From Chitinophagales bacterium (GTDB taxonomy: Bacteria; Bacteroidota; Bacteroidia; Chitinophagales; JADIYW01): a DNA stretch of 64,000 nucleotides. The notes under the pieces were generated by a model that saw only the letters and a program-made list of their open reading frames with translations, was not told the origin of the DNA and did no database searches. The position numbers and the translations under genes were made by a program. The DNA is taken from assembly GCA_046329815.1 (NCBI GenBank), contig JAXLTY010000002.1, positions 1,198,750 through 1,262,749 on the forward strand, given 5' to 3'. Below are positions 3,061 through 56,367 of the stretch, piece after piece; position 1 is the stretch's first letter; every line of letters begins with the position of its first letter.

Positions 3061-3825
3061 ATGATAAACCACAATTCTATTCATACAAAGCCATTCATAA
3101 ATATTGGAAATCAACAATATGATGACAGAAAACCTGCGTTTTATGAAACTATAGAATATGGAAATCTTATAGAAACTTTAGAAAAGAATGTTGCTGTTTA
3201 TTTAACGGAATATAATAACTATATAGAACATCAAAAACAAGATCCTAAATTCTTTTTATTGTACAATGAAACCGGCTGGAATACAGTTATGTTGTATAGT
3301 TACGGATTGCGTTATCACAAAAATTGTATTCAATTTACCAACACGTTAAAAACGTTGAAACCATACAATAATATAGTTACTATCTACTTTAGTACACTTG
3401 AACCTGATACAAAATTAAGACCACATTTTGGCGATACCGATGCAACTTATCGTATTCATTTAGGATTAGATATTCCTGCAGGTTTGCCTGAATGTGGAAT
3501 TGAAGTGGGCAACATTCAGAAAGAATGGCAAAATGGCAAAACGATTATCTTTAATGATGCGCATTTTCATACAGCATGGAATTTAACAGACAAAAAAAGA
3601 ACTGTTCTGATTGTTGATATTATCAAACCTGAATTTACAGCAAAACAATGGTTCATCATTCCTAAAATTCTTGGCGCAATGGGTGTTGGAAGAGTATTAT
3701 TTCCATTAAAGCTAATGAATATTTTACCTGAGTTTGCGCTAAAAACACTTCATTTTTTAGCAACCATCGCATTTATGATTTTGTTGCCATTACAAAGAAT
3801 GTTAAAGTATTTCTATAAATACTAA
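3061..3825 (+). CDS. Aspartyl/asparaginyl beta-hydroxylase family Fe(II)/2OG oxygenase, C-terminal membrane anchor
   Basis: Carries FSTLEPDTKLRPHFGDTDATYRIHLGLDIP and IIFNDAHFHTAWNLTDKKRTVLIVDI, plus a hydrophobic C-terminal ~60 aa. Confidence 0.75.
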   Translation: MINHNSIHTKPFINIGNQQYDDRKPAFYETIEYGNLIETLEKNVAVYLTEYNNYIEHQKQDPKFFLLYNETGWNTVMLYSYGLRYHKNCIQFTNTLKTLKPYNNIVTIYFSTLEPDTKLRPHFGDTDATYRIHLGLDIPAGLPECGIEVGNIQKEWQNGKTIIFNDAHFHTAWNLTDKKRTVLIVDIIKPEFTAKQWFIIPKILGAMGVGRVLFPLKLMNILPEFALKTLHFLATIAFMILLPLQRMLKYFYKY

Positions 3826-6883: not shown

Positions 6884-9607
6884 ATGAAATTTATCCTTGT
6901 TACCTACATATCATTATGCTCTCTCTTTTGCTTCTCTCAAAAGACAATTAAAGGTAAAATAATCGACAACTCGAATGCACAACCACTTATAGGTGCAACC
7001 ATTTTAGAAGAGAATTCCACAAATGGTACAACTTCCGATACTTCGGGAAATTTCTCCATAGAACTGAAAAATGAAAATTCCAACATACTTATTTCTTATT
7101 TAGGTTATCAGCTAAAAAAAGTAAACACATCCAATGCTACAGATTTTATTATCAAAATGGATGCTGAAGATATCACAAATGATGAAGTAGTAATTTCTGC
7201 TTCGCGTTTTCAGGAAACAATCGCTAAATCACCTGCTAATATTTATAAAATCACATCAAAAGAAATACAAAATACACCAAGCGGTGATTATTATGAAGGA
7301 TTGAAAAAAATTCCAAATGTAGATATCGTTAATAACAGCTTTGCGATGAAGATATTCAATTCTCGCGGTTTTAATACAACATCACCATTTCGTGTTACAC
7401 AAATTATTGATGGCATTGATAATATGTCGCCAGTACTCACCTTTTCACCTGGAACTTTATTTAGTGTTTCAGATATTGATATTGATAATATTGAACTGAT
7501 TTCCGGTCCGGCATCTGCACTTTACGGACCAAATGCTTTACAAGGCGTTATCAGCATCAAAACCAAAGATCCATTTATACGCGAAGGATTGACATTACAA
7601 CTAAAAGGCGGAAGCAGAAAATTTGTCGAAGGTCAGGCACGTTATGCGCAGGCATTTGGTAAAAAGAAAAAAATAGCTTTAAAAATAGCCGGCTCGTATT
7701 TTACTGCTGATGACTGGCGTGCAAATGATGAGACTTTAAATAACTACAGAAAAATTCCATACGCACCACAACGTATTGGCGCCTTATCGCAATCACTCGC
7801 AACAGACATGTCGCTTACGGCAGATCAGCGACAAGCATACACTGATTTCAATAATTATACAGCTTCTAATCCGAATGTAAATCCTGGAAATATTACATTT
7901 ACATTGCCAGGATATGATGAAAAATATTTAGCAAAAAACAGAGCTTATGGTGCAAAAGTATCTGCATCTTTAGATTATAAAATAACCAATACAATTAAAT
8001 TGAGTTATTTATACAAATTTAATAGCGGCTCAGCAGTGTATCAGGGAAACAACCGTGCATACATGGATAATTTCCGATTCAATCAACACAAATTAGAACT
8101 TTCCGGCAAAGATTTTTTCGTTAGAACCTATGTATCGCAAGAAGATCTAGCTAATTCATACGATTTGGTTTTAACAGGCATTAATTTAGGAATTGCAGGC
8201 CTTCCAAATGTGAATAAAACCTTTTTAAATGCTTATTTAGATTCTGTAAAAATCTTATCTAATAACTACACGACAGCTTTAACAAATGCTCAGGTAGCTC
8301 AACTTAAGGCAAGCTCAACGGCTGCCGCACAAAGTGGATGGCTACAACCCGGAACAGAAGCATTTCAGGCCGCTTTTAATAAAATTACTACAAGCGGTAA
8401 CCGGCCAACCGGTTCGAAATATACCAGCCGTTCTTTGATTGTTCATCTAGAAGGCCAATATAACTACACTTACAAAATATTAGATATAAATGCAGGTGCA
8501 TCTTACAGAAGAATCATTCCAAAAACAAAAGGCGAAATATTTAGTGATACATTAATGCCCAATGGAAAATATAAAAACCTTGCTTATAATGAATATGGCG
8601 GCTTTGTACAGTTAACCACTCGGTTATTAAAAAATGATCTAAAACTATTAGCTTCTTTACGCATCGATAAGAGTCAGAACTTTAAAGTACAATTCTCGCC
8701 AAGAGTAGGAATTGTATATAATAAGTCAAACCATTCAATCAGACTTTCCTGGCAAACTGCATTCAGAAGTCCGACTTTGAATGACCAATATTTTTATCTG
8801 AATACAGGTGGTTTTATTTTAAAAGGAAATTTAAGTGGTTATAATAATTTATACACTACCAATTCTTTAAACGCATACAATGCATCACCAACAAAAGACA
8901 GCACATTACTTAAAACGTTTATAGCAAAACCAATAAAACCTGAAAACCTGAACACGATTGAAATCGGTTACCGACTGAATGAATTAAAAGGATTTTCAGC
9001 AGAGTTTACAATGTATTACAATCGTTATTCCAACTTTATCGGAAGCATAAATGTCATTGAACCTAAATCTGGAAATGTAAATGATTCGAGCGGTTTGAAA
9101 GATGTAAAAACAAGAAATTATAATTCATATCGTATTTGGGTAAACTCAACGAATAAAGTAAACACGCTTGGACTTGGAATTAGTTTATCTTATACCATTA
9201 AAAACATTACATCATACATTAATTATACTTACAATAAATTCTTTGACGACCACAAAGAAGATGATTTAATTCCTGGATTTAATACGCCGCCGCATAAACT
9301 GAATATAGGCATAACCGCTAATAAAGTATGGAAAGGACTTGGTTTTGGTGCTAACTTTCACTGGCAAGATAAATTCTACTGGGAAAGTCCTTTCGCTAAT
9401 GGCGATGTAAAACAAATACATACATTGGATTTGGAAGTACACTATGAAATTGAAAAAATCATGTCAACACTTCGTGTAGGTGGTTCTAATATTTACAATA
9501 ATAAAGTAAAATACGCTGCCGGTGCTGCTGAAATTGGTGCTTTCGTATATGGTTCTTGGACATTTGACATGGCATTTACCGGCAAATATTTAAAAAAGAA
9601 AAATTAA
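6884..9607 (+). CDS. TonB-dependent receptor with N-terminal CarboxypepD_reg domain
   Basis: Has a signal peptide, a CarboxypepD_reg-like stretch (KGKIIDNSNAQPLIGATI...ISYLGY), the plug motif IELISGPASALYGPNALQGVISIKTK and a long beta-rich C-terminus. ATG is at 6884; the track start at 6878 is TTG. Confidence 0.8.
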   Translation: MKFILVTYISLCSLFCFSQKTIKGKIIDNSNAQPLIGATILEENSTNGTTSDTSGNFSIELKNENSNILISYLGYQLKKVNTSNATDFIIKMDAEDITNDEVVISASRFQETIAKSPANIYKITSKEIQNTPSGDYYEGLKKIPNVDIVNNSFAMKIFNSRGFNTTSPFRVTQIIDGIDNMSPVLTFSPGTLFSVSDIDIDNIELISGPASALYGPNALQGVISIKTKDPFIREGLTLQLKGGSRKFVEGQARYAQAFGKKKKIALKIAGSYFTADDWRANDETLNNYRKIPYAPQRIGALSQSLATDMSLTADQRQAYTDFNNYTASNPNVNPGNITFTLPGYDEKYLAKNRAYGAKVSASLDYKITNTIKLSYLYKFNSGSAVYQGNNRAYMDNFRFNQHKLELSGKDFFVRTYVSQEDLANSYDLVLTGINLGIAGLPNVNKTFLNAYLDSVKILSNNYTTALTNAQVAQLKASSTAAAQSGWLQPGTEAFQAAFNKITTSGNRPTGSKYTSRSLIVHLEGQYNYTYKILDINAGASYRRIIPKTKGEIFSDTLMPNGKYKNLAYNEYGGFVQLTTRLLKNDLKLLASLRIDKSQNFKVQFSPRVGIVYNKSNHSIRLSWQTAFRSPTLNDQYFYLNTGGFILKGNLSGYNNLYTTNSLNAYNASPTKDSTLLKTFIAKPIKPENLNTIEIGYRLNELKGFSAEFTMYYNRYSNFIGSINVIEPKSGNVNDSSGLKDVKTRNYNSYRIWVNSTNKVNTLGLGISLSYTIKNITSYINYTYNKFFDDHKEDDLIPGFNTPPHKLNIGITANKVWKGLGFGANFHWQDKFYWESPFANGDVKQIHTLDLEVHYEIEKIMSTLRVGGSNIYNNKVKYAAGAAEIGAFVYGSWTFDMAFTGKYLKKKN

Positions 9608-22325: not shown

Positions 22326-24854
22326 ATGAAAAATCTAACAATAAAATTAATATGCTTAGTATTATTTTATAATATTTTAATTACTAAAGCACAAACACAA
22401 AACCCTCTTGATGACTGTATTTATACAGGCACACCACCATTAGTACTAGAAGGATACAATAGTGGAACAACTGCAGCTACCGGACAAATTGATTTTAACA
22501 CGACTCCTTCAGCGCCTAATCTTTTCTATAGAAATAGAATAATAGTTGGAGATCCAAATGGATCAACTAGTATTGGTTCTGAACCAACAAATCTTTCTGA
22601 TTTATACAATAGCATACCATTTGGCACAAAATTATTACCTTATCAAAGGTCTATGTTCCAATCTTATGGTGGTGTGGTTCATGATATCTCTGATGGGCGA
22701 AATGCAATATCAAGTTTAATACGTTTAAATGGCTTAGGTGTTTCATTTGGTACAATTTCTGAAGCCAGATACGATCAATTTCCTGATGGATCTGGCGGAA
22801 CAATAAAAGCAGCATATAATTTTGGTGTTCATGGTCAACATTCATTTTCAGACTATGCTGGTGGTACACTACCAGGTGGTGCTACTGATTATCAGACAGC
22901 AGGCGGTTATTTTATAAATTATCTTGCAGATAGTAAGGCTGTTTTTGGTCCTGTATTAAGGTTTCATGCTGGAGTTATTGGTGCGATACAAAATCAAGAA
23001 GGCAGTACAAGTTCTGCAGGCAATGCTGCTGTAATGGCAATTGACGATACAAAAGGAGAAGATCTAAATAATAATGGACTAAACTACGCCGGTTTATTTT
23101 CAGGCAGAGGATTATTTACCAGCCGAGTACGAATAGGATTGGTTGGTATCTCGCCCGCATCATCTGGTGTTACAACGGCTCTGCTGCATATTGATGGTAC
23201 TGGTATTACGGACGATGTTACCGGAGTTGTTGGCAGAAATGTATTACGTGTTGTTGGATTAACTGACAATAAAGAAAAGAGAGTGTTAGTATTAGATGAC
23301 GAAGATTATGTTCGAACCCAACCTTTTATATCATCCTGTACAGACAATTCATATAATTTAAATCATATAAATGGTACAAAGGATGACTTGGAATGTGGCA
23401 GAATTTGGGACAATGGCACTAATTCAAGCTCCGGTCAGGTTGGTATCAACTTTCCTACATTTGCATCAATAAACGCAACAATTAATTATACCGGCACAGC
23501 TCAGGACAATACAGGTGTAGATATAGTAACAACCGGTAGATTCAGAGCAATGAATATCACGCCACAATCGACTCCAACGCCTTCAATTGTTGGTATGGAT
23601 GATAAGAATGAATTAATTAAAATACCTTTTATATCATCATGCACAGACAATTCGTACAATCTAAACCATATAAATCTTGCAAAAGATGGCTTAGAATGTG
23701 GTAGAATTTGGGACAATGGTACTAATTCAACCTCTGGTCAGATCGGTATTAACTTCCCTACATTTGCATCGATAAACGCAACAGTTAATTATAGTGGCGC
23801 AGATCAGGATAATACAGGTGTAGATATAGTAACAACCGGTAGATTCAGAGCAATGAATATCACGCCACAATCGACTCCAACGCTTTCAATTGTTGGTATG
23901 GATGACAAGAATGAATTAATTAAAATACCGTATCCATCTACAGGATCATCTTATATTACAGCTAATTGCACTACTAGAAATCGTGTACCTAAAATACTGG
24001 CGAACGGTTCGCCAAATATGACATGCAGTCAAATATTTGATAATGGCACAAGCGTTGGTATTGGTACAACAACTGGTTTTGGTTATTTTGCAACACCTTA
24101 CAATGTCATTCATCCATGGCAACCATTGGTTCCGATAATAGGCAACCTAAAATTAAAAGTTAATGGTGTTACAATGAGCACCGGATATTTACTTGCTTCT
24201 GATTTAAGGTATAAAAAAAATATCAAGCCAATTGTAAATGCATTAGACAGAATAAAACTATTAAATGGAGTAACATATGAATGGAAAAAAGATGAATTTA
24301 AAGATAAAGATTTTGACGCATCAAGTCAGATAGGTTTTATTGCTCAAGAGGTAGAAAAAGTAATACCACAAGCAGTAATAAAAGATGATGAAGGTTATTA
24401 CGCAATGAATTATACGATGTTAATTCCTGTTCTTACGGAAGCTATTAAAGAACAACAATCTATAATAGATAAACAACAAAAAGCAATGGAAGATTTAAAA
24501 ACTAAATTATCTGCTTTAGAAAATAATGTTGATAGATGTTGCTTAAAATCTATTGGCAATGTTTCTATGGATCAAATACCATTGAATAAAGAAATTAAAC
24601 TCTATCAAAATATTCCAAACCCCTTTACCGAAGTAACAGAAATTAAATTTTATTTACCGGAAACAATTAAACAAGCAAGTCTAATTATTTATGACCTTCA
24701 AGGAAAGGAAATACTAAAAATGGATGTTACCGAACGTAATAATGCTTCAATAAAAATTAATGGGAAAGAATTAGCAGCAGGAATGTATATTTATTCTTTA
24801 ATTGCAGAGAATAAAGAAATAGACAGCAAACGAATGATCTTAACGAGTAAATAG
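22326..24854 (+). CDS. Secreted tail-fiber-like protein: signal peptide, 2 x 101-aa repeat, peptidase S74 intramolecular-chaperone-like domain, coiled coil, T9SS type-A C-terminal sorting domain
   Basis: Has a signal peptide (MKNLTIKLICLVLFYNILITKAQ). An S74-like block runs from about nt 24198 (SDLRYKKNIKPI...LLNGVTYEWK...QIGFIAQEVEKVIPQAV...YAMNYTMLIPVLTEAIKEQQ). The CTD reads LYQNIPNPFTE...LIIYDLQGKE...GMYIYSL. Confidence 0.7.
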   Translation: MKNLTIKLICLVLFYNILITKAQTQNPLDDCIYTGTPPLVLEGYNSGTTAATGQIDFNTTPSAPNLFYRNRIIVGDPNGSTSIGSEPTNLSDLYNSIPFGTKLLPYQRSMFQSYGGVVHDISDGRNAISSLIRLNGLGVSFGTISEARYDQFPDGSGGTIKAAYNFGVHGQHSFSDYAGGTLPGGATDYQTAGGYFINYLADSKAVFGPVLRFHAGVIGAIQNQEGSTSSAGNAAVMAIDDTKGEDLNNNGLNYAGLFSGRGLFTSRVRIGLVGISPASSGVTTALLHIDGTGITDDVTGVVGRNVLRVVGLTDNKEKRVLVLDDEDYVRTQPFISSCTDNSYNLNHINGTKDDLECGRIWDNGTNSSSGQVGINFPTFASINATINYTGTAQDNTGVDIVTTGRFRAMNITPQSTPTPSIVGMDDKNELIKIPFISSCTDNSYNLNHINLAKDGLECGRIWDNGTNSTSGQIGINFPTFASINATVNYSGADQDNTGVDIVTTGRFRAMNITPQSTPTLSIVGMDDKNELIKIPYPSTGSSYITANCTTRNRVPKILANGSPNMTCSQIFDNGTSVGIGTTTGFGYFATPYNVIHPWQPLVPIIGNLKLKVNGVTMSTGYLLASDLRYKKNIKPIVNALDRIKLLNGVTYEWKKDEFKDKDFDASSQIGFIAQEVEKVIPQAVIKDDEGYYAMNYTMLIPVLTEAIKEQQSIIDKQQKAMEDLKTKLSALENNVDRCCLKSIGNVSMDQIPLNKEIKLYQNIPNPFTEVTEIKFYLPETIKQASLIIYDLQGKEILKMDVTERNNASIKINGKELAAGMYIYSLIAENKEIDSKRMILTSK
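23322..23927 (+). repeat. In-frame tandem duplication, 2 x 303 bp (101 aa), inside the tail-fiber-like gene
   Basis: Units 23322-23624 and 23625-23927 both start PFISSCTDNSYNLNHIN. The distal ~119 bp (23508-23626 vs 23811-23929) differ at only 2 positions. The proximal part is clearly more diverged. Confidence 0.9.
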
Positions 24855-38603: not shown

Positions 38604-41600
38604 ATGAAGAAGGTTTTATTTAGTATAGTATTTTGCTATACATGCAGTATTTTATTTGCTCAACAGACAATTGCTACTTTGACAGCAAGCGATGCTGAAA
38701 AAGAAATTTACCTGAAAGATTGGGACATCGACATCAAGATAGCTGGCAATATTGCTGTCACTACTCAAAAGCTGGTTTTTCATAATCCGAATGACAGAGT
38801 TTTGGAAGGCGAATTTAATTTTCCGTTGAATTATGGACAAACGGTATCACGATTTGCGATGGATTTTAATGGCGTACTTCGCGAAGGCAGTATCGTTGAT
38901 AAAGAAAAAGGCAGAAAAACTTTTGAAAGAATAGTACGACAAAACGTAGATCCTGGCTTACTGGAAATGACCAAAGGAAATAATTTCAGAGCAAGAGTTT
39001 ATCCGATTCCGGCAAAAGGAACAAAAACAATTGTTGTTGCTTACGAACAGGAATTGCCAATACTTTCAGGAAGTGCTTCTTATTTTCTTCCTTTAGATTT
39101 GAAAGACTCTATACCATTCTTTCATTTGAAAGTAAATGTGATAAAAAACGAGATACAACCAAAATGGATTGAGAACAGTATTACCAATCTTACATTTGAT
39201 AAAATAGAAGAAAGTTTTATTGCCGAAAAGAAAATAGAAAACTTCAAAGCAACATCCAATTTATCGTTTGATATACCTATTGAAAATACTGCTGTAAATT
39301 TTGTACAAACGACAAAGTCTGAAAGTTATTTTTATGCTTATCAGAATTACACCGCAACACTATATGCCAGAAAACCTGCTAAAACATTAGTAATATTATA
39401 TGACGTTTCCAGTTCCAGGCAAAATGCAGACCGAGTTAAAGAAATAATTTTCCTTACTGATTATTTACAGCATTTAAAAAATGTAACAGTAGAATTGATA
39501 CCATTTAGCAATGCTGTTCATACTACTGAAAAATATATTATCCAGAATGGAAATTCATCAGCACTGATTAAACAACTTACAAAACAAACATTTGATGGCG
39601 GAACACAATATGGAAATATTCATTTATCAGATTATAATTATGCTGATGAAGTGCTTTTATTTACGGATGGTATCAGCAATTTTGGTAAGCAAAAATTTAC
39701 AGAAGAAAATTTCAAGAAGCCATTATTTGTCATTAATTCATCATCTGTTTCCAATCATGATTATTTACATAATCTTGCAAAAAGAAATAACGGAACATAC
39801 ATTCAATTATTGAATTGCACCATGCAAGATGCTACTAATAAGATAACCATAACCTATCCAAAAATAATAAATATAGAATGCATCGACGGAAACGTAAAAG
39901 AAATTTATCCAAAAACACCTGTCAATATCTATAACGGCATCAGTATAACCGGTATTTTAAAAAGTGCATCTGCTAAATTAAAAGTATCGATCAATACCGG
40001 TGACAGCATAGAACAAAAGATCATTACCATAACTAATGATAAAAAGAATACCGAATTTGTTCAGCGTCTCTGGGCAAATAAAAAGATTGCGGATTTAATG
40101 TCAGATCCTGAAAAAAATGAATCTTTAATTAAAGAAACCGGTTTAAAATACAGTATAGTTACGCCAAGTACATCACTAATTGTGCTAGACAATATTGATG
40201 ACTACATTCGTTATGAAATTGCACCGCCTGCAGAAATGCAAAAGGAATATTTGGAAAGATTAGCAGAAAAAAAAGAAGAAGACAAAGAAACCAGAGAAGA
40301 AGACAAAGAAGAATTAAAAGACCAAATAGATGTTGCTTATGAAGATATGCAAGACAGAATTGATTGGTGGAACACGTCATTTCCTAAAAAAGAAAAGAAA
40401 GTAAAACCTAAAAAACCAGTTACAACTACAACATCCAATACTTCAACAAGCGCATCCAACAATACAGCTAACAACACAACACCGGTTGTCAATAATTCTG
40501 TTTCGCAAAAACCTGTAACAATTATTACTGACAGTATGAAACACGATACAGTTCACTTCAGATACATCAGTGGTGTAGTGAAAGACAAAAAAAATGGTGA
40601 ACCATTGATTGGTGTAAATGTAACAGGCAAAGGAACAACTCTTGGAACTGTGACTGACATTGACGGAAAGTATGAACTGCTGTTGCCAAAAGATGTCACA
40701 ACGCTTGTTTTTATGTATATCGGTTATGCTAATCTTGAAAAACCAATCATATCGTTGGTAATAAATGCATTATTAGAAGAAGAAAGCAGTAGATTAGATG
40801 AACTTGTAGTGACCTCTAGCAGAAGCGGTAGAATACCAACTTATTCTATTCAATCTATCAATATAGAAGAAATAAATAGCATTGGCACATCAAATTATTT
40901 TTCTGCTATACAAGCAAAAACGCCCGGCGTACGAATAAATATTGCTGCACCAGGCGCATCAACCAGAATAGTAGTTTCAGAATCTTTGGCTAAGAATGAA
41001 AACGCAAAAATAATTATAGATGGTATTGTTGTTAATGATGGTAAACAACTAAATCCTGCGTTTGCAAACAACAAGAACATTATAGATCCTGATGACATAA
41101 AAGATATAAAAGTAATTAAAGACAGTAACACTATACTAATTACAACTAACACAAAAGCTATAAAAGCTATCGACACCACAACTAACTACATTCTGGATTC
41201 TGATATTCAATTGCAAAATTTCATGTCTAAATTAAAAGCGGAATCATCCGAAAATCAATACGCACTCTATTTAAAAACTAAAAAAGACAATCCGACTAAT
41301 TTTGCTTTTTATATAGACGTTGCCAATTACTTCTATACTACTGACCGCAAAGATAAAGCTATACAGATCTTATCTAACATTGCTGAGATCGACCTGGAAA
41401 ATCATGAACTGATGCGTGCGATGGCGTACGTTTTAGAATCATGGAAAGAGATAGATTTGGCATTAGATGCTTACACGGAAATTCTTAAAATAAAAGGCGA
41501 AGAACCGCAAAGTCATCGTGATTATGCATTAGCATTAGCAGAAAAAGGCGATTATCAGCAAGCTGTCAATCTGTTATATGATATCCTGAATAAAACGTGG

Positions 41601-48791: not shown

Positions 48792-50927
48792 ATGCAATTT
48801 AATATTCATACTCAAACAGTAGATATTGGAAATGGTAGAACTGCTACCATTGAAACCGGAAAAATGGCGCGTCAGGCAGACGGCGCTGTAGTCTTAAAAG
48901 TAGGTAACTGCATGATCTTAGCCACTGCAGTAGCGGCTGAATCGGCAAAAGAAGGCGTTGACTTCTTTCCTTTAACGGTAGAATACCAGGAAAAATTTGC
49001 GGCAGCAGGTCGTATTCCAGGCAGTTTCCACCGTCGCGAAGGCAGAGCAACCGATTACGAAATCTTAATTTGCCGTATCGTTGACCGTGCGATTCGTCCG
49101 ATGTTTGCGGATAATTTCAGAAACGAAACACAAGTATTGCTGTACTTAATTTCGAGCGATGACAACGTAGCTCCTGACGCACTAGTTGGCTTAGCTGCTT
49201 CTGCTGCTTTATCTATCTCAACTATTCCGTTCTTGGAACCGATCTCTGAAGTTCGCGTAGCTAAGATCGATGGAAACTATATCGTGAATCCATCACCGAA
49301 AGATATTGAAAGAGCAACTTTAAACATTATTCTGGCAGGTACTTCTGAAAACATCTTGATGGTGGAAGGTGAAGCGAAAGAAGCACAGGAATCAGAATTA
49401 ATCGAAGCAATCAAAGTTGGTCACGATATTATTAAAAAACACTGCACGGCAATCTTAGAATTAAAAGCAAAATGCGGTAAAGAAAAATCAGCAGTTGCAG
49501 AACCGGAAGAAGACACGGAATTATACGAAAAAATTAAAGCATTTGCAGAACCGAAAGTTATAGAAATAGCAAAATCGGCGTCTGCAAAACACGAACGTAA
49601 AGCTGCTTTCAAACAAGTAAAAGAAGATTTCTTAGCAACGATTCCTGAAGAAGAACTGGAAACATTCAATAAAGGTTTGTTCTCAGAATACTTACATAAA
49701 ATTGAAAAGAACGCAATCAGAAATACGGTTTTAAACGACAGAGTTCGTTTAGATGGCAGAAAAACAGATGAGATTCGTCCGTTAATTATGGAAGTGGATA
49801 TTTTACCATCTGCACATGGTTCTGCATTATTCACACGTGGCGAAACGCAATCATTGACTACAGTTACTTTAGGTTCTAAAACCGATGAGCAAATGATTGA
49901 TAAAGCGGAAGAATTAACGTATAGCAAATTTATGTTGCATTATAATTTTCCACCATTTTCAACAGGCGAAGTAAAAGCATTGCGCGGAACTTCACGTCGT
50001 GAAGTTGGACACGGAAATTTAGCGCAGCGTTCATTAAAACAAATGTTACCATCCGAAGACACGAATCCATACACGATCCGTGTGGTTTCTGATATTTTGG
50101 AATCCAACGGTTCGTCTTCTATGGCAACGGTTTGCGCAGGTTCATTAGCATTAATGGATTCAGGTATTCCGTTCAAAAAATTAGTTTCAGGTATTGCAAT
50201 GGGTATGATTGCTGAAGGTGGCAAATACGCTATTTTATCAGACATCTTAGGTGATGAAGATCATTTAGGTGATATGGATTTCAAAGTAACCGGAACGCGT
50301 GATGGTATTTGCGGTGTTCAAATGGACTTGAAAGTAGATGGTCTTTCTTATGAAGTTTTGTCGGAAGCATTAGAGCAGGCAAAACGCGGTCGTTTACATA
50401 TTTTAAGTGCGATGGAACAATGCATGCCTGCACCGCGCGCTGATTTGAAACCACATACACCACGCGCTGAAAGCATTAATATTCCGAAAGAATTTATCGG
50501 TGCTGTGATTGGACCAGGTGGAAAAATCATCCAGGAAATTCAGGAAAAAACAAATACAGTTATCACGATCGAAGAAGATAAAGAAAAAGGTATTGGTAAA
50601 GTAACGGTATTGTCGAACAATAAAGACAACATGTTGGCTGCATGGAAACGCATCAAAGGTATTGTTGCCGTTCCGGAAGTTGGTGAAGTATATGAAGCAG
50701 AAGTAAAATCAATTATGCCTTACGGTGCATTCGTTGAGTTCATGCCTGGCAAACAAGGTTTATTGCATATTTCCGAAGTATCACATTCACGTTTAGATTC
50801 ATTAGAAGGCGTTTTAACGGAAGGCGAAAACATCAAAGTAAAATTATTAGGCGTTGATGCGAAAACAGGCAAATTCAAATTAAGCAGAAAAGTATTAATG
50901 CCGAAAACGGAAGAGCAAGCAAATTAA
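48792..50927 (+). CDS. pnp: Polyribonucleotide nucleotidyltransferase (PNPase)
   Basis: Has two RNase PH domains, the motif GDEDHLGDMDFKV, a KH domain (IGPGGKIIQEI) and a C-terminal S1 domain (GEVYEAEVKSIMPYGAFVEF). Confidence 0.97.
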   Translation: MQFNIHTQTVDIGNGRTATIETGKMARQADGAVVLKVGNCMILATAVAAESAKEGVDFFPLTVEYQEKFAAAGRIPGSFHRREGRATDYEILICRIVDRAIRPMFADNFRNETQVLLYLISSDDNVAPDALVGLAASAALSISTIPFLEPISEVRVAKIDGNYIVNPSPKDIERATLNIILAGTSENILMVEGEAKEAQESELIEAIKVGHDIIKKHCTAILELKAKCGKEKSAVAEPEEDTELYEKIKAFAEPKVIEIAKSASAKHERKAAFKQVKEDFLATIPEEELETFNKGLFSEYLHKIEKNAIRNTVLNDRVRLDGRKTDEIRPLIMEVDILPSAHGSALFTRGETQSLTTVTLGSKTDEQMIDKAEELTYSKFMLHYNFPPFSTGEVKALRGTSRREVGHGNLAQRSLKQMLPSEDTNPYTIRVVSDILESNGSSSMATVCAGSLALMDSGIPFKKLVSGIAMGMIAEGGKYAILSDILGDEDHLGDMDFKVTGTRDGICGVQMDLKVDGLSYEVLSEALEQAKRGRLHILSAMEQCMPAPRADLKPHTPRAESINIPKEFIGAVIGPGGKIIQEIQEKTNTVITIEEDKEKGIGKVTVLSNNKDNMLAAWKRIKGIVAVPEVGEVYEAEVKSIMPYGAFVEFMPGKQGLLHISEVSHSRLDSLEGVLTEGENIKVKLLGVDAKTGKFKLSRKVLMPKTEEQAN

Positions 50928-51000: not shown

Positions 51001-51711
51001 TTACAGCAACTGCTTCACTACGGTAATACTTACAATGTCGCTCCAGTGACCTACAATTTTATCATCCATACGGTAAATACTTTTGTATTTCCACAATTCT
51101 GCTTTTACAGGCAACGAATGATTGTCAATGTAATTTGGTTTAGTATCAATGTCGCATCTTACAAAATCATTGCCATCGCCTCTGTCCACCCAAATTTCCA
51201 AAGCATCCATACCATTCTTGCTCCAGATAATTTCCGGCTGACCGCCTTCAATTAAATGTACTTTAATGGTTGGTTTGATAGTATCTAAATTAGGTTTCGC
51301 TTTTTTTACAGTTGATACTTCAATACCCAAATCCAAGCCATCAGACTCTGTGTAATTGATATGACTTTTAATGCGGTTAGCAAATGCTTTAACGCGTTTA
51401 AAAATACCAGCAGAAACAGCAGGCGGAGCAGCCGTCAAAGTTGGCGCAACTGGAGCAACACTTGCCGTAACGCCTGCCGGCAAGCCGTCTTTAATTTCTT
51501 TGATATAGGCATTTAGTTTTTTCAAATACTCACCGTATTGTGTTTTGTAATTGAGATGATAACTAAAGTACAATAACGATGCTAATATATCAGCTACTTC
51601 AGCAGCAGTAATATTGTATTTGGCGCTGTACTGTGCAATTTTGTTCGCAAAGTTCCTCAGCCAGGTTTCTTTTTCAGAATCCGTTCTTGGTAAAAATCCA
51701 TTCTTTTTCAT
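51001..51711 (-). CDS. Hypothetical protein
   Basis: A 236-aa ORF with good coding appearance, an A/P/V-rich linker and a beta-rich C-terminus. I recognise no motif. Confidence 0.5.
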   Translation of the reverse strand: MKKNGFLPRTDSEKETWLRNFANKIAQYSAKYNITAAEVADILASLLYFSYHLNYKTQYGEYLKKLNAYIKEIKDGLPAGVTASVAPVAPTLTAAPPAVSAGIFKRVKAFANRIKSHINYTESDGLDLGIEVSTVKKAKPNLDTIKPTIKVHLIEGGQPEIIWSKNGMDALEIWVDRGDGNDFVRCDIDTKPNYIDNHSLPVKAELWKYKSIYRMDDKIVGHWSDIVSITVVKQLL

Positions 51712-51824
51712 AATGTTAAAATTTAAAGATTAATAAATAATTTTTGTGTGCACATAAAATAAACAACGAAAAACAATGCCAACTATTTCATATTTAACCC
51801 AGATAAAATTATTTTTAATACATT

Positions 51825-52097
51825 TTAACATTTGCGCACTATACAATGCGCACAGAGCACAACCACATGTTTGTTGCGCACTAATACATGCGCATCGCGC
51901 GCGGTAGTATGCGCGATGCGCACAAGAATATGCGCACTGCGCAGTTAATCATGCGTAACATACATAATGCCATGCGCCACACGCAACAAGCAATGCACAT
52001 GGCACATAAAAGTTTGCGCAATGCGCATGATGATATGCAGAGGTCGCCAATTATGTTGCGCGATGCATATAAGACAATGCGCATTGCGCATGTATAA
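51825..52097. repeat. Array of 13 directly repeated, exactly phased 21-bp units with core palindrome TGCGCA-N-TGCGCA
   Basis: Units start at 51825, 51846, 51867, 51888 and so on to 52077. Examples are atgcgcgatgcgcacaagaat, atgcgcactgcgcagttaatc, ttgcgcaatgcgcatgatgat and atgcgcattgcgcatgtataa. Positions 2-7 and 9-14 are conserved and the last ~7 nt are variable and A/T-rich. Confidence 0.85.
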
Positions 52098-52113
52098 TCG
52101 TGGCGAGATAATT

Positions 52114-52213
52114 ACGCTTCGCGTCATGGCGAGGTACGAAGCCATCTATAATTTAGATTGCTTCAGTGCGTTCGCCATGACGCGAAGCGTGTATTAACTG
52201 AATTTCGCAAGAG
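52114..52213 (+). repeat. REP/MITE-like element copy A (19-bp perfect inverted repeat)
   Basis: acgcttcgcgtcatggcga (52114-52132) pairs perfectly with tcgccatgacgcgaagcgt (52172-52190). The element ends in aatttcgcaagag. It is homologous to 56256-56367. Confidence 0.7.
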
Positions 52214-52232
52214 CATTTTCATTAATCTTGAT

Positions 52233-52261
52233 AAAAAATCCTGCGTGTAGCAGGATTTTTT
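52233..52261. terminator. Terminator hairpin (serves the minus-strand protease gene; also T-run on plus)
   Basis: aatcctgc-gtgta-gcaggatt, flanked by A6 and T6. Confidence 0.7.
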
Positions 52262-52285
52262 AGTTAAACTGTATAAAACCGAAGA

Positions 52286-55200
52286 TTAATGTGTAATGAC
52301 AATTTCTTTGGTAACCGTATTATTGCCATCCGAAATTTTTATCAGGTATAAGCCATTCGATAAATTGCTGATATCAATAGTAGCTGAATTAGCACTGAAA
52401 GCATTTTTAAATACTTCCGTTCCATTGCTTTTGAATATACTTATGGATTGGATATTTTTTGCATCATTCAGGTTGATGGTAATGGCATTGCTGCCCGGAT
52501 TTGGATAAACAGTTGCTTTAAGCGCTGACTTAGCCGTTGAATTTCCCTGGTTTGGCGAACCAGGTGCAAAACCGGTTGGGTTTACAGTGAGTTTGGCAGC
52601 AGCAGAATAACCTATACAACCTGCTGTATTCGTTCCTTTACAACGGAAATAACTTTGATCAAAACTATATGGTGTATTAGTGATAGATAAAACTTGTGTT
52701 GTTGTGCCACTAAAATAGCCGCCGTTGTTAATATCATTGTAAACAGAAGAGCCGGCTAATTTTTGCTGCCATTTGTATTGTAATGTTGAATCTGTTGATT
52801 GTGCAGGAAAATTAAAACTGCCATGTTCATTTACCGTTCCGTTTGTTGGATTTGCATAAAAAGATGGTGTGTTAAATGTTAAAACTGCCACTTGTGTATA
52901 AAGTGTACAACCATCTACATTTGATATTTTACATCTAAATGATTTTCCATTTAAACCTGCTACTGTGGTTGGAATGGTCATAGTTCCGGTCGTTGTTCCA
53001 CTAACGCTTGTACCTAAAACAATTGGAGTAACATTTACCCAACTACTGATATTATATACTTCCCATTGATACGTTGGAGCAGGACTGCCGCTTAATTGTT
53101 CGCAATAAGCTGTAAAAGAAACTGATGAGCCAACACATGCTACTTTACTTTGTGGACTGGAAAATTCGCGGATAGGTTTTAAAAATGAACAACTAGGCAT
53201 AACTTTACTTGTATCTCTAATATATAAACTTGCTTTTTTATCCATTTGACGACCTGTACCAATATAGCTTCGTTGTGCAGGTGTTTTAGATATGTTTAAT
53301 GTTTCATTCCAAAACATTAATTCTAATTCATGCATGGAATTTGTAGTTGCATTTGGATTAATAATGTGCATTAATCCAAGTGCATGTCCTAGTTCATGTA
53401 AAATATCTGAGTAGAAATCATATTTCCCACTTGGTTTGGTATCATTGATGCCATAATGCCAAATTATTCCCGTCATTTTAATACCTATGTCTGAAGCTTG
53501 CCTTCGTGGAATGCCACCACATGTAGCGACACATGAAGTAGTTTCCATTAGTGTACCATTTGCTAAAGTATTATCTATGTATAGCATGCTTATAGTATCG
53601 AGATTGTTTATCGAGCCATCTGCAAAATATTGATAATTGTTATAATCATCTTTTTGCAGTCGTAGATCAATTCTTAAAAATCTTGCCCATACATTTATAG
53701 CGCTGTCTATAACAGCAATGGCTTGTGGATATGGCTGTAGAGAATTTCCGAGTTTGAAAATAAATGATGAATTTTGGCAATTTCGAAATGCCCATACTAC
53801 TTTTTTCTTAGTAGATGAATTCTCTATTCCAAACTCTACATCTAAATTTGTAGTGGTGCTATCTCTAAATCCTATATCATTTACTACCTTAAATTTACCA
53901 CTGCCTGCAGTCACATCTTTTGTAAAATTTGAATTTACAATTGTTGATGGAACTTTAACCTTTATTTCAGAATCATTCCAACTTACATAATCTAATGTAT
54001 CACATCCCTGCATATATCTACTGAAGCTATCCGCATCTGGAAATAACACTTGCCCTTTTCCTCTCGTAGTCCCAAAATTAGTTCCGGTAATTGTTAAAAC
54101 CTCATTAGTACCTGCTCGTATAACCGATGGTGAAAAACCGGTTATTTTTGGTATTGGGCAAAGTGCAATGGGTGAATTATCTGTGCGGAATACATTATCA
54201 TACGATTGTATCGGACCTGCTATAGAATCGTTGCTATGGAGTTTATAACCGGTTAAAATATCGCATATCACAGGATCTACAAATTTCATTTTAGCGGTTG
54301 CCTGGCAGTTTTTTATTCTGAATTTTATATGCATCAGTTGCAAAGGTGTAGTGCCTACTGCTATGCGAGTTGGCACATATAACGAATCGTTGGTGCTTAA
54401 ATTGATGCCCACCACTGTATCTGAGATGTAGCCGGGTCCATATATTTTGTAGTTTATATTATTGAACGATGTTCCCTTTGTAGCTGTTAAATAATTTTTT
54501 ACATAGAGAGAATCGCCGAAAGCAGCTTTATCAAAATTGAGACGTACAAGTGTGCCCTCAAAATAGGTGGCCTGTGTGCCCCACACATAAATATCAAAAT
54601 CGAGATAATTAACACCGGCAGCCGTAGAATAAGCAATATTCCTGATATCAAGGTTTAGGTTTCCGCCGCTTGCAAGTTTTAGATTTGGATTTGCTTTTTT
54701 TTTTGCTTCCTGCTCTGCTTTTGCCAATTCTTTTCCTTTTATAAATAATGCTTCTCGTTTTTGTGTTTCTATTTTTATTTTTTGCAATTCTGCGTCTTTA
54801 GCTTCCTGTTCGGCTTTCTCTTTTTTTAATTGTATTTGCTGTAAGCTATCTTCTACAATATCTGTTCTATCTATAAAGTCAGTTTGTAGATTAAAGCTTT
54901 TTATAGATTTTCGCAATTCTTTTGCATTTCCAAAGTCTCCTGCCCAAGGTGCAAAGTATTTATTATCCCAACAATCTTGACAATATATAATAGCCCTATC
55001 ATGCTCAATTACCATTGTGTTTTCCATCTTTTTGTCCCACACACACCCTTTACTATTAGATACATTTTTGCCAAAAACAATACCTCTATTACCTTTCTGT
55101 GTAAAAACTGGTGGATGATTACCATGTGATGGTTTGACAGTGCTAATTGTAATCTCATCATCATCAAGAGAAGGTGCTTCACCGCCTTTTACAATTACCT

Positions 55201-55456
55201 GTACAAAGCCAAGTTTCATGCCATTGCCTTTAAAAACATTAGTTACTTCTACTAAAAGAGAAGTATAAATAGTATTTATACCTCTCTCATCTTTTACCCA
55301 ATACCCTTTGCTATCCACAACAGTACCTTCAAAAACATAATCTGCGTTTTGCAGCATGTCAGGTACTTTGGCAGGTGTTTGTTTTTCGGTTTGTGCATTC
55401 AGGTTGGCTGTAATTATTAATGCAGCAATCGCAATCAAAAATTTTAAATTTTTCAT
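52286..55456 (-). CDS. Secreted multidomain zinc metalloprotease with IPT/TIG, Ig-like repeats and T9SS type-A CTD
   Basis: Domain order: signal peptide, then a ~200-aa N-terminal domain with a CQDCW motif, then a K/E coiled coil. These are followed by an IPT-like block (ITGFSPSVIRAGTNEVLTITGTNFG) and HExxH (ILHELGHALGLMH). Two Ig-like units follow (YQWEV...FRCKISN and YKWQQ...YFRCKGTN), then the CTD VYPNPGSNAITINL...GLYLIKISDG. Confidence 0.75.
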   Translation of the reverse strand: MKNLKFLIAIAALIITANLNAQTEKQTPAKVPDMLQNADYVFEGTVVDSKGYWVKDERGINTIYTSLLVEVTNVFKGNGMKLGFVQVIVKGGEAPSLDDDEITISTVKPSHGNHPPVFTQKGNRGIVFGKNVSNSKGCVWDKKMENTMVIEHDRAIIYCQDCWDNKYFAPWAGDFGNAKELRKSIKSFNLQTDFIDRTDIVEDSLQQIQLKKEKAEQEAKDAELQKIKIETQKREALFIKGKELAKAEQEAKKKANPNLKLASGGNLNLDIRNIAYSTAAGVNYLDFDIYVWGTQATYFEGTLVRLNFDKAAFGDSLYVKNYLTATKGTSFNNINYKIYGPGYISDTVVGINLSTNDSLYVPTRIAVGTTPLQLMHIKFRIKNCQATAKMKFVDPVICDILTGYKLHSNDSIAGPIQSYDNVFRTDNSPIALCPIPKITGFSPSVIRAGTNEVLTITGTNFGTTRGKGQVLFPDADSFSRYMQGCDTLDYVSWNDSEIKVKVPSTIVNSNFTKDVTAGSGKFKVVNDIGFRDSTTTNLDVEFGIENSSTKKKVVWAFRNCQNSSFIFKLGNSLQPYPQAIAVIDSAINVWARFLRIDLRLQKDDYNNYQYFADGSINNLDTISMLYIDNTLANGTLMETTSCVATCGGIPRRQASDIGIKMTGIIWHYGINDTKPSGKYDFYSDILHELGHALGLMHIINPNATTNSMHELELMFWNETLNISKTPAQRSYIGTGRQMDKKASLYIRDTSKVMPSCSFLKPIREFSSPQSKVACVGSSVSFTAYCEQLSGSPAPTYQWEVYNISSWVNVTPIVLGTSVSGTTTGTMTIPTTVAGLNGKSFRCKISNVDGCTLYTQVAVLTFNTPSFYANPTNGTVNEHGSFNFPAQSTDSTLQYKWQQKLAGSSVYNDINNGGYFSGTTTQVLSITNTPYSFDQSYFRCKGTNTAGCIGYSAAAKLTVNPTGFAPGSPNQGNSTAKSALKATVYPNPGSNAITINLNDAKNIQSISIFKSNGTEVFKNAFSANSATIDISNLSNGLYLIKISDGNNTVTKEIVITH

Positions 55457-56255: not shown

Positions 56256-56367
56256 ACGCTTTGCGTCATGGCAAGGCACGAAGTCATCTTTAAATTAGAT
56301 TGCTTCACTGCTTCCGAAGTTTCGGAACGCAAGGACGCGATGCGCTGAACAATAAATTTCGCAAGAG
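56256..56367 (+). repeat. REP/MITE-like element copy B
   Basis: acgctttgcgtcatggcaaggcacgaagtcatctttaaattagattgcttcac... is ~85-90 percent identical to copy A over the first ~55 nt. It has the same terminal aatttcgcaagag. Confidence 0.7.

Follow-up and report, generated by a model that had tools for sequence, protein, structure and literature searches.

Organization of the repeat locus

The window analyzed in this study is a stretch of 64,000 nucleotides from a Chitinophagales bacterium (contig JAXLTY010000002.1), and its subject is an array of 13 phased 21-bp repeats at positions 51825-52097, together with the gene for a 236-aa protein (51001-51711, minus strand) that the array precedes and that is the sole gene conserved with it. 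The array lies in a gene-free stretch of 574 bp and is separated from the 236-aa gene by about 114 bp of A/T-rich DNA, beyond which gene follows pnp (48792-50927, plus strand). On its other side, and separate from it, stands a hairpin with perfect 19-bp arms and a fold z of -12 (52114-52190), similar to repetitive extragenic palindromic (REP) elements or miniature inverted-repeat transposable elements (MITE). The hairpin is followed by a bidirectional intrinsic terminator (52232-52262) that ends the upstream gene (52286-55456, minus strand), encoding a 1056-aa protein with a Por_Secre_tail domain that is sorted by the type IX secretion system. In contigs of sludge metagenomes the hairpin was found at 5-10 times the surrounding depth and with many different flanks, and a further copy of its arm lies at 56256-56274 in the window. 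The hairpin is thus a dispersed repeat family of the organism or the community, in agreement with an earlier note on this DNA, made from the sequence alone, which had called it REP-like.

Phased repeats in the window

Counted from 51825, every 21-base unit opens with (A/T)TGC in the register layout, and the consensus of the 13 units, which was assigned to neither strand, is (A/T)TGCGCA-N-TGCGCA followed by seven variable A/T-rich bases, the better units reading ATGCGCA-N-TGCGCA before these seven bases. The autocorrelation within 51780-52130 was 0.47 at lags 21, 42 and 63 against a background of about 0.22, and a weaker sub-period of 7 bases was detected, corresponding to two TGCGCAN heptads plus a 7-bp spacer. 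The top lag-21 score of 210-nt segments in the whole window, 0.514, starts at 51790 and stands about 6 standard deviations (sd) above the rest (mean 0.292, sd 0.037). Both the register layout and the lag autocorrelation therefore agree with the 13 in-register units originally described, including the three upstream units (51825-51887), each of which retains one half-site in register (51833, 51847 and 51875). The ten best units (51888-52097) had been described as unambiguous; all of them are indeed in register, but several (51951, 51993 and 52035) are quite degenerate.

Conservation within the unit is concentrated at positions 2-7 and 10-14, while positions 15-21 are near random; the unevenness along the unit is significant (P=0.001), as is the clustering of the conserved positions (P=0.006). 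The consensus unit carries a dyad arm of 8 bp, compared with a mean of 3.6 bp after shuffling (P=0.007), and thus the conserved part of the unit is the dyad core, as had been proposed. The G+C content of the array (0.45-0.48) is higher than that of the flanks (0.29-0.40). Because the units are only 54% identical in pairwise comparison on average, Tandem Repeats Finder did not report the array even at its lowest threshold (minimum score 30). A search of 51600-52400 against Rfam at E<=10 yielded only sub-threshold microRNA-like noise, the strongest on the adjacent hairpin and weaker in the array.

Four independent metagenome studies of sludge or wastewater yielded contigs with the array unchanged, and no variation in unit number between strains was seen in these contigs, so that the array is not a hypervariable contingency locus. 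Of the 28 TGCGCA sites in the window, 11 are inside the array, and so are all three perfect TGCGCA-N-TGCGCA cores (51931, 52015 and 52078). This confinement, together with the single-copy depth of the array in metagenomes, sets the array apart from REP elements, bacterial interspersed mosaic elements and MITE, that is, from dispersed palindromes such as the adjacent hairpin, which does fit them.

Linkage of phased arrays to one gene family

Homologues of the 236-aa protein were identified at identities from 82% down to about 30%. The genes neighboring the first six relatives are all different, yet upstream of the family gene each locus has a gene-free stretch of 475-650 bp, and a phased array, each time with a different motif from that of the window, is clear in five of the six. 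The array motif is TGTAG-N3-CTACA at loci L007 and L013, GGTGACAT-N6-ATGTCACC at L006, TGCGCAGGGGCA alternating with TGTCCC-AA-GGGGCA at L009, and TGTCCG-NN-CGGACA at L011. Using as the criterion a lag identity of at least 0.5 within 700 bp upstream of the gene, signals were obtained for 61 of 74 loci, with periods of 21 (29 loci), 42 (28 loci), 22 (3 loci) and 41 bp (1 locus), while an equal-sized downstream control gave signals for 5 of 68 loci, with periods of 15, 18 and 24 bp. Relative to the length of DNA searched, 62 signals in 56,700 bp of upstream zones (81 loci) stand against 5 in 317,740 bp of other flanks, an enrichment of about 70-fold, and a more sensitive local measure detected an array signal in 77 of the 81 loci. 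The period is kept while the motif is different at each locus, and the retention of the 21/42-bp period in homologous loci of three phyla supports the view that the 21-bp spacing is a constrained property of the array.

No other family of open reading frames (ORFs), including Rep, ParA, ParM, TubZ and cas, recurs in the flanks of more than 5 of 87 loci, and therefore the conserved unit consists of the array and the gene of the 236-aa family. This pairing spans at least three phyla, with members among Bacteroidota, Verrucomicrobiota and Methylococcales. We found no description of such a module in the literature searched, and as far as can be told the link between array and gene was previously undescribed. 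It is highly probable that the array functions in cis and is tied to this gene family.

Coding potential of the arrays

The ten best units of the window coincide with an open plus-strand frame (51888-52097) of 69 codons, which starts with ATG, ends with TAA and repeats the heptad M-R-x-A-H-x-x ten times. Its openness over ten units with proper start and stop codons, the annotation of such an ORF by a gene caller in one assembly (L003), and the synonymous nature of some third-position changes (GCG/GCA, CAT/CAC) would all suit a real small protein of heptad repeats, but this is most improbable for the following reasons. The 69-aa peptide has no homologue among 5.8 billion proteins in a shared-word search, and the variation between units shows no codon-phase pattern, with P=0.49 for the window and P<0.05 for 2 of 33 related arrays, which is the chance level. 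The three upstream units, which nevertheless retain the DNA motif, are separated from this frame by an in-frame TAA at 51882. Among related arrays with a period of 22 or 43 bp, 3 of 5 are closed in all six frames, and an array with the same motif at L129 carries in-frame stops plus a one-base slip of register. The called ORF lies on opposite strands relative to the gene in different loci, and for units of 21 nt at least one of the six frames is expected to be open by chance, as is the case here.

The lack of a homologue, the lack of codon phase and the stops in related arrays lead to the conclusion that the array is non-coding and that its ORFs are by-products of the repeat, as the earlier note had supposed. 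The in-array ORFs annotated by gene callers are located at L003:362-571 (69 aa) and L013:2724-2891 (55 aa). N-terminal extensions of 40-77 residues were noticed in P0093, P0106, P0131, P0174 and other members of the 236-aa family. These extensions are probably a systematic annotation artefact, in which the start codon was placed at too great a distance upstream, inside the array or even past it.

The 236-aa protein and its family

The profile search retrieved 3,313 cluster representatives (clusters at 50% identity) at E<=0.001 and 533 at E<=1e-30, and among the 150 matches listed almost all are 225-236 aa in length. No match was obtained for the 236-aa protein in Pfam (no domain of any kind at E<=1), NCBIfam, PHROG, PADLOC or a sequence search of the PDB, and no signal peptide is apparent by eye. 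The AlphaFold2 model, with a predicted local distance difference test (pLDDT) score of 90, contains helices at residues 11-28, 36-75, 103-115 and 122-128, followed by a beta-sandwich, and fold searches returned fibronectin-III (FN3) domains only. The predicted architecture is accordingly an N-terminal helical domain (residues about 1-130) of unmatched fold plus a C-terminal FN3 beta-sandwich. When modeled alone (pLDDT 91, predicted template modeling score 0.78), the N-terminal domain had no fold match in the PDB. In the clade of the window this domain is basic (+6 to +8, pI 9.5), and the helix at residues 103-115 is recognized as basic by eye in the family alignment.

A search of GTDB genomes with the single protein gave no loci, a query with the family alignment being needed; the scan of GTDB species genomes with the alignment gave 236 relatives, of which 80 were fetched. 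The carriers include Chitinophagales, Saprospiraceae, Flavobacterium, Hymenobacter, Cyclobacteriaceae, Verrucomicrobiota and Methylococcales/Crenothrix, and a genome often has several copies. Among cultured carriers are Flavobacterium restrictum LB1R34, Deminuibacter soli K23C18032701 and Chitinophagaceae bacterium MMS25-I14. The upstream neighbors, compared for 72 loci, are heterogeneous and include genes for extracytoplasmic function (ECF) sigma factors, and one of the six closest relatives adjoins a gene for a TIR-domain protein.

Arrangement of the arrays and the putative promoter

The best-conserved cores of the 36 strongest arrays cover 81-308 bp, with a median of about 185 bp. The distance from the proximal edge of the periodic signal to the start codon has a median of 101 bp (quartiles 53-177 bp) and is 40 bp or less in 17 loci, indicating that the arrays abut, overlap or sit downstream of the promoter, without a fixed enhancer-like distance. 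Scans for sigma-70 promoters found no canonical promoter between array and gene at L069 and L063, with a tool that omits the Bacteroidota promoter type.

Alignment of the region between array and start codon for eight close relatives in the clade of the window revealed several conserved blocks. An A/T-rich box on the minus strand, AATGTTAAAATGTATTAAAAATAATTTTA (51804-51832; clade consensus TGTTAAAATATATTAAAAA), abuts the gene-proximal end of the array and is kept in 7 of the 8 aligned relatives despite their differing array motifs, being absent in L004. Closer to the gene, a block with invariant CGT-T columns, TTTTCGTTG (51764-51772, minus strand; clade consensus TTGCGTTG), is a candidate for the -33 region, and an A/T-rich box near the start codon, AAATTATTTATTAATC (51728-51743, minus strand), also conserved in the alignment, is a candidate for the -7 region; the latter box and the box abutting the array form an inverted pair, both in the window and at L009. 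Between the candidate -33 and -7 regions lies a single palindrome of alternating purines and pyrimidines, TGTGCACA (51747-51754, without strand), a candidate operator, for which the aligned relatives carry TATGCGCATA, ATACGCGTAT, TGTGTACACA or TGTGTATACA; the promoter-near palindrome of L009 and L011 has TATGCGCA in common with the array units. Judging from this alignment, the middle blocks may represent the promoter of the 236-aa gene with a possible operator in its spacer. The 8-mers of a locus's own array are enriched about 3.5-fold beside the array on both sides, a value confounded by the degenerate edges of the arrays.

Sequence conservation within the arrays

Uneven conservation along the unit was detected at P<0.01 in 10 of 38 arrays, and at P<0.05 in about 17, and the conserved block coincides with the dyad in the window and at L007. 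This unevenness indicates that particular bases are read. Perfect dyads of significant length were found in 11 of 35 non-redundant consensus units, the window included. What defines the class is the phasing of direct repeats; the palindrome occurs as a frequent variant.

Paralogous loci within a genome hardly ever have a motif in common: 12 of 13 paralogue pairs, with proteins 50-77% identical, are without any common repeated 7-mer, and the motif overlap falls from 0.70 at protein identities of 90% or more to 0.12 at 70-90% and about 0.01 below. The motif differences between paralogues exclude a single host factor per genome as the reader of all arrays. In Flavobacterium restrictum, the loci L076 and L083 encode proteins of 97.7% identity and are homologous in DNA sequence from -110, and their homologous arrays (73-76% identity) are in opposite orientation relative to the gene, one case of orientation independence. 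The whole array of L076 is bracketed by a 43-nt inverted repeat of 93% identity (L076:1925-1967 and 2301-2343), and it may be an invertible or mobile cassette; flanking inverted repeats around the arrays are not general across the loci.

The freedom of sequence between loci under a conserved period raises the possibility that the arrays are sequence-independent architectural DNA, with in-phase bends that tune the promoter, or the product of neutral tandem expansion at a slippage-prone site. Some arrays are in fact near-identical recent expansions, such as the 13 x 22 bp array of L019 with units of 96% identity, and the relation between motif and protein similarity would fit neutral turnover. 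However, neither a shape model nor a neutral model predicts the concentration of conservation at particular positions of the unit or the enrichment of dyads, and the array of the window is old, as judged from the 54% identity of its units, and still phased and unchanged between independent metagenomes. In addition, the 70-fold enrichment at one gene family in three phyla is hard to explain without function. We consider explanations of this kind unlikely.

Proposed mode of action of the arrays

The reading that we favor is that the array acts as duplex DNA, offering phased sites for the cooperative binding of a protein, and we hold this to be about an even chance or slightly better. Each 21-bp unit, or two helix turns, would present one dyad core on the same face of the DNA, and a sequence-specific, probably dimeric protein would bind cooperatively and coat 200-400 bp. 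The coated DNA, which would abut, overlap or follow the promoter of the gene, could then set its expression, most likely by repression or autoregulation. The duplex-DNA reading is supported by the B-DNA period, the dyads, the symmetric spectrum of mismatches in the dyad arms and the inverted paralogue of F. restrictum. Of the mismatches, 102 are G·T, 121 are A·C and 217 are transversions, and 46 of 1,478 pair cells show compensatory double changes; the lack of an excess of G·T over A·C means that no signature of an RNA hairpin exists on either strand. The earlier note had left the choice between an iteron, centromere-like or operator-type array for a dimeric DNA-binding protein; the last is the best supported by this analysis, with the binding itself predicted from sequence, while an iteron or a centromere does not agree with the chromosomal location and the lack of a partner gene.

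The motif is private to each locus, paralogues included, and a reader of the arrays must therefore be locus-specific; since the adjacent gene is the only locus-specific gene, its own product is the favored candidate for the binder, although we propose this only tentatively. The product might contact the array through its N-terminal helical domain with the basic helix at 103-115. The array and the 236-aa gene are then best read as a self-contained two-part module, in which, as a possible though still doubtful joint interpretation, a protein with an unseen helical DNA- or RNA-binding domain plus FN3 would recognize its private phased array, the specificity would diverge fast enough to give orthogonal paralogues within one genome, and the whole would have spread by horizontal transfer through Bacteroidota, Verrucomicrobiota and Methylococcales. 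The FN3 domain could tether or report the marked chromosome, thereby serving as an "address label", or the module could be a new class of autoregulatory circuit.

A number of observations weigh against the proposal in one or another of its parts. Neither Pfam nor the fold searches gave a recognizable DNA-binding fold, be it winged-helix, ribbon-helix-helix (RHH) or helix-turn-helix (HTH), for the 236-aa protein, and many distant relatives in which an array is still present have a neutral or acidic N-terminal half. Clear dyads are present in only about a third of the arrays, and about half show none. Shared descent would equally lead to the observed relation of motif similarity to protein similarity. 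The L129 contig (G+C content 0.33) carries a true 21-bp ATGCGCA-N-TGCGCA array, near-identical to that of the window, at 7678-7960 (identical to L172), about 180-460 bp upstream of an unrelated gene for a secreted DctP-like solute-binding protein; no FN3-family gene within 14 kb, no remnant of a family gene and no shared flanks were found at this locus, so that arrays of this kind also occur outside the family. The lack of a DNA-binding fold, the variable charge and L129 count specifically against the adjacent product as the binder. At the Crenothrix locus L064 the array region and the gene have equal RNA depth (about 6-13) in two metatranscriptomes from different studies, and the 21-nt periodicity runs up to the ribosome-binding site. 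Finally, a C>G skew was detected on the gene-sense strand (mean -0.065, negative in 38 of 56 arrays, p~0.001, for loci that are not fully independent), and it hints at some orientation dependence; no AT skew was found in the 56 gene-oriented arrays.

The L064 array is transcribed with its gene, on strandless contigs for which read-through is possible. One RNA contig extends over the start codon, covering -176 to +229, and the uneven depth of the rest of the locus, from 0.1 to 878, argues against carry-over of DNA. The array could accordingly be a long 5' leader with 21-nt repeats recognized by an RNA-binding protein, perhaps that of the FN3 family, leading to post-transcriptional autoregulation or to control of stability or termination. 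The transcription and the periodicity at L064, the short distance of 40 bp or less to the start codon in 17 loci, the sense-strand skew and a protein without a DNA-binding fold are all in keeping with such an element. It is the main rival of the duplex-DNA reading, although clearly less probable: a period of 21/42 bp, with variants of 22/43 bp, corresponds to two or four turns of B-DNA and has no obvious need in RNA, the dyad arms show no bias of G·U over A·C on either strand, the inverted arrays of the F. restrictum paralogues would give complementary RNA, and Rfam was empty. Moreover, the RNA data come from one locus, searches for coverage of L065, L044 and L074 and for RNA data of the organism of the window or of Methylobacter having given none, and low, even coverage in strandless contigs may represent read-through. 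Transcription through the array would also agree with the duplex-DNA reading, if the sites act as operators or roadblocks that follow a promoter. Just downstream of the family gene of L064, two regions (L064:2497-2808 and 3589-3744) reach an RNA depth of up to about 800-2,100, compared with about 10 for the gene, and their many alternative joints and flanks suggest an abundant repeated small RNA or a mobile element.

If the proposal holds, the array of one sludge bacterium points to a widespread undescribed regulatory architecture, since the protein family numbers over 3,000 clusters (50% identity) and nearly all of the 81 loci sampled have a phased array, and to a new nucleic-acid-binding fold; it would provide synthetic biology with a natural library of orthogonal protein-site pairs, and would be a clean system for the co-evolution of binding specificity and repeat arrays. 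Should the binder prove to be another protein, the strict retention of a two-helical-turn period with free sequence would still be an unexplained constraint. The link between array and gene is directly testable in cultured strains of Flavobacterium and Chitinophagaceae. In genome annotation, the arrays create spurious small ORFs, probably spurious N-terminal extensions, and potentially false calls of clustered regularly interspaced short palindromic repeats (CRISPR).

Comparison with known repeat systems

In architecture the array of the window is most like partition centromeres and iterons, and it is a member of none of the systems compared, because the defining proteins and genomic contexts of these systems were tested for and are not present. 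Among partition centromeres, parC of R1 consists of 10 x 11 bp and parC of pSK41 of 20-bp repeats, both bound by ParR and located upstream of their own operon. The arrays share with such centromeres the tandem, helically phased and often dyad repeats and the system-specific, fast-diverging motifs; in type Ib and type II partition systems the array likewise lies upstream, before the operon that it autoregulates. The sopC site of F carries 12 direct repeats with a length of 43 bp, and SopB binds to a 16-bp inverted repeat in each of them (PMC3177203); periods of 43 bp are also found here, at L006, L009 and L011. In contrast to partition systems, the loci of this study have no NTPase partner and no ParB, RHH or HTH protein, and they are chromosomal, single-gene, multi-copy and not in PLSDB.

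The iterons of theta plasmids are repeats of 17-22 bp with a spacing of about 22 bp, bound by Rep, together with an inverted-repeat operator at the rep promoter. Direct repeats two helical turns apart with a locus-specific motif are common to iterons and the present arrays, and the clade of the window has in addition a promoter-near single palindrome that partly resembles the array unit. The adjacent protein, however, is no winged-helix Rep, the context is not that of a plasmid, and the 10-14 units exceed most iteron sets. An arrangement of DnaA boxes or an A/T-rich unwinding element was not identified, though no rigorous search for it was made. We thus consider it very improbable that the array represents plasmid-type iterons or the partition centromere of an integrated replicon, bound by a Rep or a ParB/ParR-like protein, in spite of the formal resemblance in phasing (about 21-22 bp as in iterons, or 43-bp repeats with an inverted repeat as in F sopC), the locus-specific motifs and the position beside a possibly autoregulated gene. 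The family gene was not found in 72,556 PLSDB plasmids (by tblastn), 50,697 GenBank phage genomes or IMG/VR; its loci are on chromosomal contigs of up to 2.9 Mb, among housekeeping genes such as tgt, aroQ and infB and in several copies per chromosome; and, as described above, neither a recurrent Rep, ParA, ParM or TubZ gene in the flanks nor a winged-helix, RHH or HTH fold in the adjacent protein was identified.

The autoregulatory sites of LytTR proteins, which are 9-bp direct repeats 12 bp apart (a 21-bp period) located about 10 bp upstream of the -35 of the operon (PMC6193735), have in common with the present arrays the exact 21-bp period, the direct repeats, which here would lie at or upstream of the promoter of the adjacent gene, and the proposed autoregulation. 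They differ in forming pairs instead of arrays of 5-14 units and in having a taxon-wide consensus instead of a motif per locus, and a LytTR domain was not among the matches of the 236-aa protein in Pfam, where there were none of any kind at E<=1. The omega protein of pSM19035 recognizes arrays in which 7-10 repeats of 7 bp follow one another directly, upstream of promoters. For both systems the proposed mechanism is a cooperative coating of repeats near the promoter, and the unit of the window has a 7-bp sub-period, but this sub-period is found only in the TGCGCA type, being absent in most other arrays, and no RHH protein is present.

Of the unexplained phenomena, the closest are the TAACTGA heptamer direct repeats of Beggiatoaceae and cyanobacteria, which are located in 5' intergenic regions, shared across distant lineages and proposed to be regulatory or post-transcriptional (PMC4679880). 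Both are unexplained arrays of short direct repeats in 5' intergenic regions; there, however, one heptamer is used genome-wide beside many genes, whereas the present arrays have 21-bp units, locus-specific motifs and one gene family. Arrays of 42-43 bp with alternating units (L009, L037 and L059) mimic the repeat-spacer arrays of CRISPR for naive detectors, but the unit of the window is a 13-bp core followed by an 8-bp spacer, the apparent spacers are repeated or only 7-8 bp long, neither a leader nor unique spacers exist, and no cas genes are conserved near the arrays of the 87 loci.

Many of the cores (TGCGCA, GGTACC, CCGCGG) are classic palindromes of the type II kind, and the motifs differ between genomes as do the specificities of restriction-modification systems, of which genes adjoin three of the six closest loci. 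The array might hence be imagined as a cluster of restriction or methylation sites, the state of which switches the gene. The association with restriction-modification genes, namely a type III methylase, a C5 methylase and MmeI beside L004, L006 and L011, was followed and then rejected, since among 72 loci a DNA methyltransferase is the upstream neighbor in only about 4. Motifs also differ between paralogous loci of one genome, about two thirds of the arrays are without a clear palindrome, and any 6-bp palindrome is the site of some enzyme. A switch based on methylation is for these reasons highly unlikely.

TGCGCA runs in metagenomes and other repeats of the window

A scan of metagenomes for two phased TGCGCA cores gave more than 120 matches, of which 80 were fetched, and none of these 80 contigs carries the family gene. 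Most of the matches come from GC-rich DNA and consist of short (TGCGCAN)n heptamer runs, a phenomenon separate from the arrays described above, and they may be nearer to the TAACTGA repeats than is the array of the window. Runs of 4-13 heptamers were recorded among L095-L174 (for instance L139:4469-4516, L142:50-118, L150:5492-5560 and L171:3007-3040), and many of them coincide with the beginning of a long open frame, which probably places them in promoters or 5' regions. One contig, L163, carries two TGCGCA-rich 21-bp arrays (1270-1430 and 2400-2700), with 20 TGCGCA sites in 500 bp. The stretch between the two, which we take to be similar to eukaryotic 18S ribosomal RNA (…AAACTTAAAGGAATTGACGGAAGGGCACCACC), suggests that these arrays may be spacer repeats of ribosomal DNA or that the contig may be chimeric.

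Two further repeats were noticed in the window. The third-highest lag-21 signal comes from an A-rich 21-bp tandem repeat at 40265-40321 (AGAAAAAAAAGAAGAAGACAA, 2.2-2.7 copies), the sequence of which is unrelated to the array, and at 23321-23929 a unit of 303 bp is present in two tandem copies of 90% identity (Tandem Repeats Finder score 1015).

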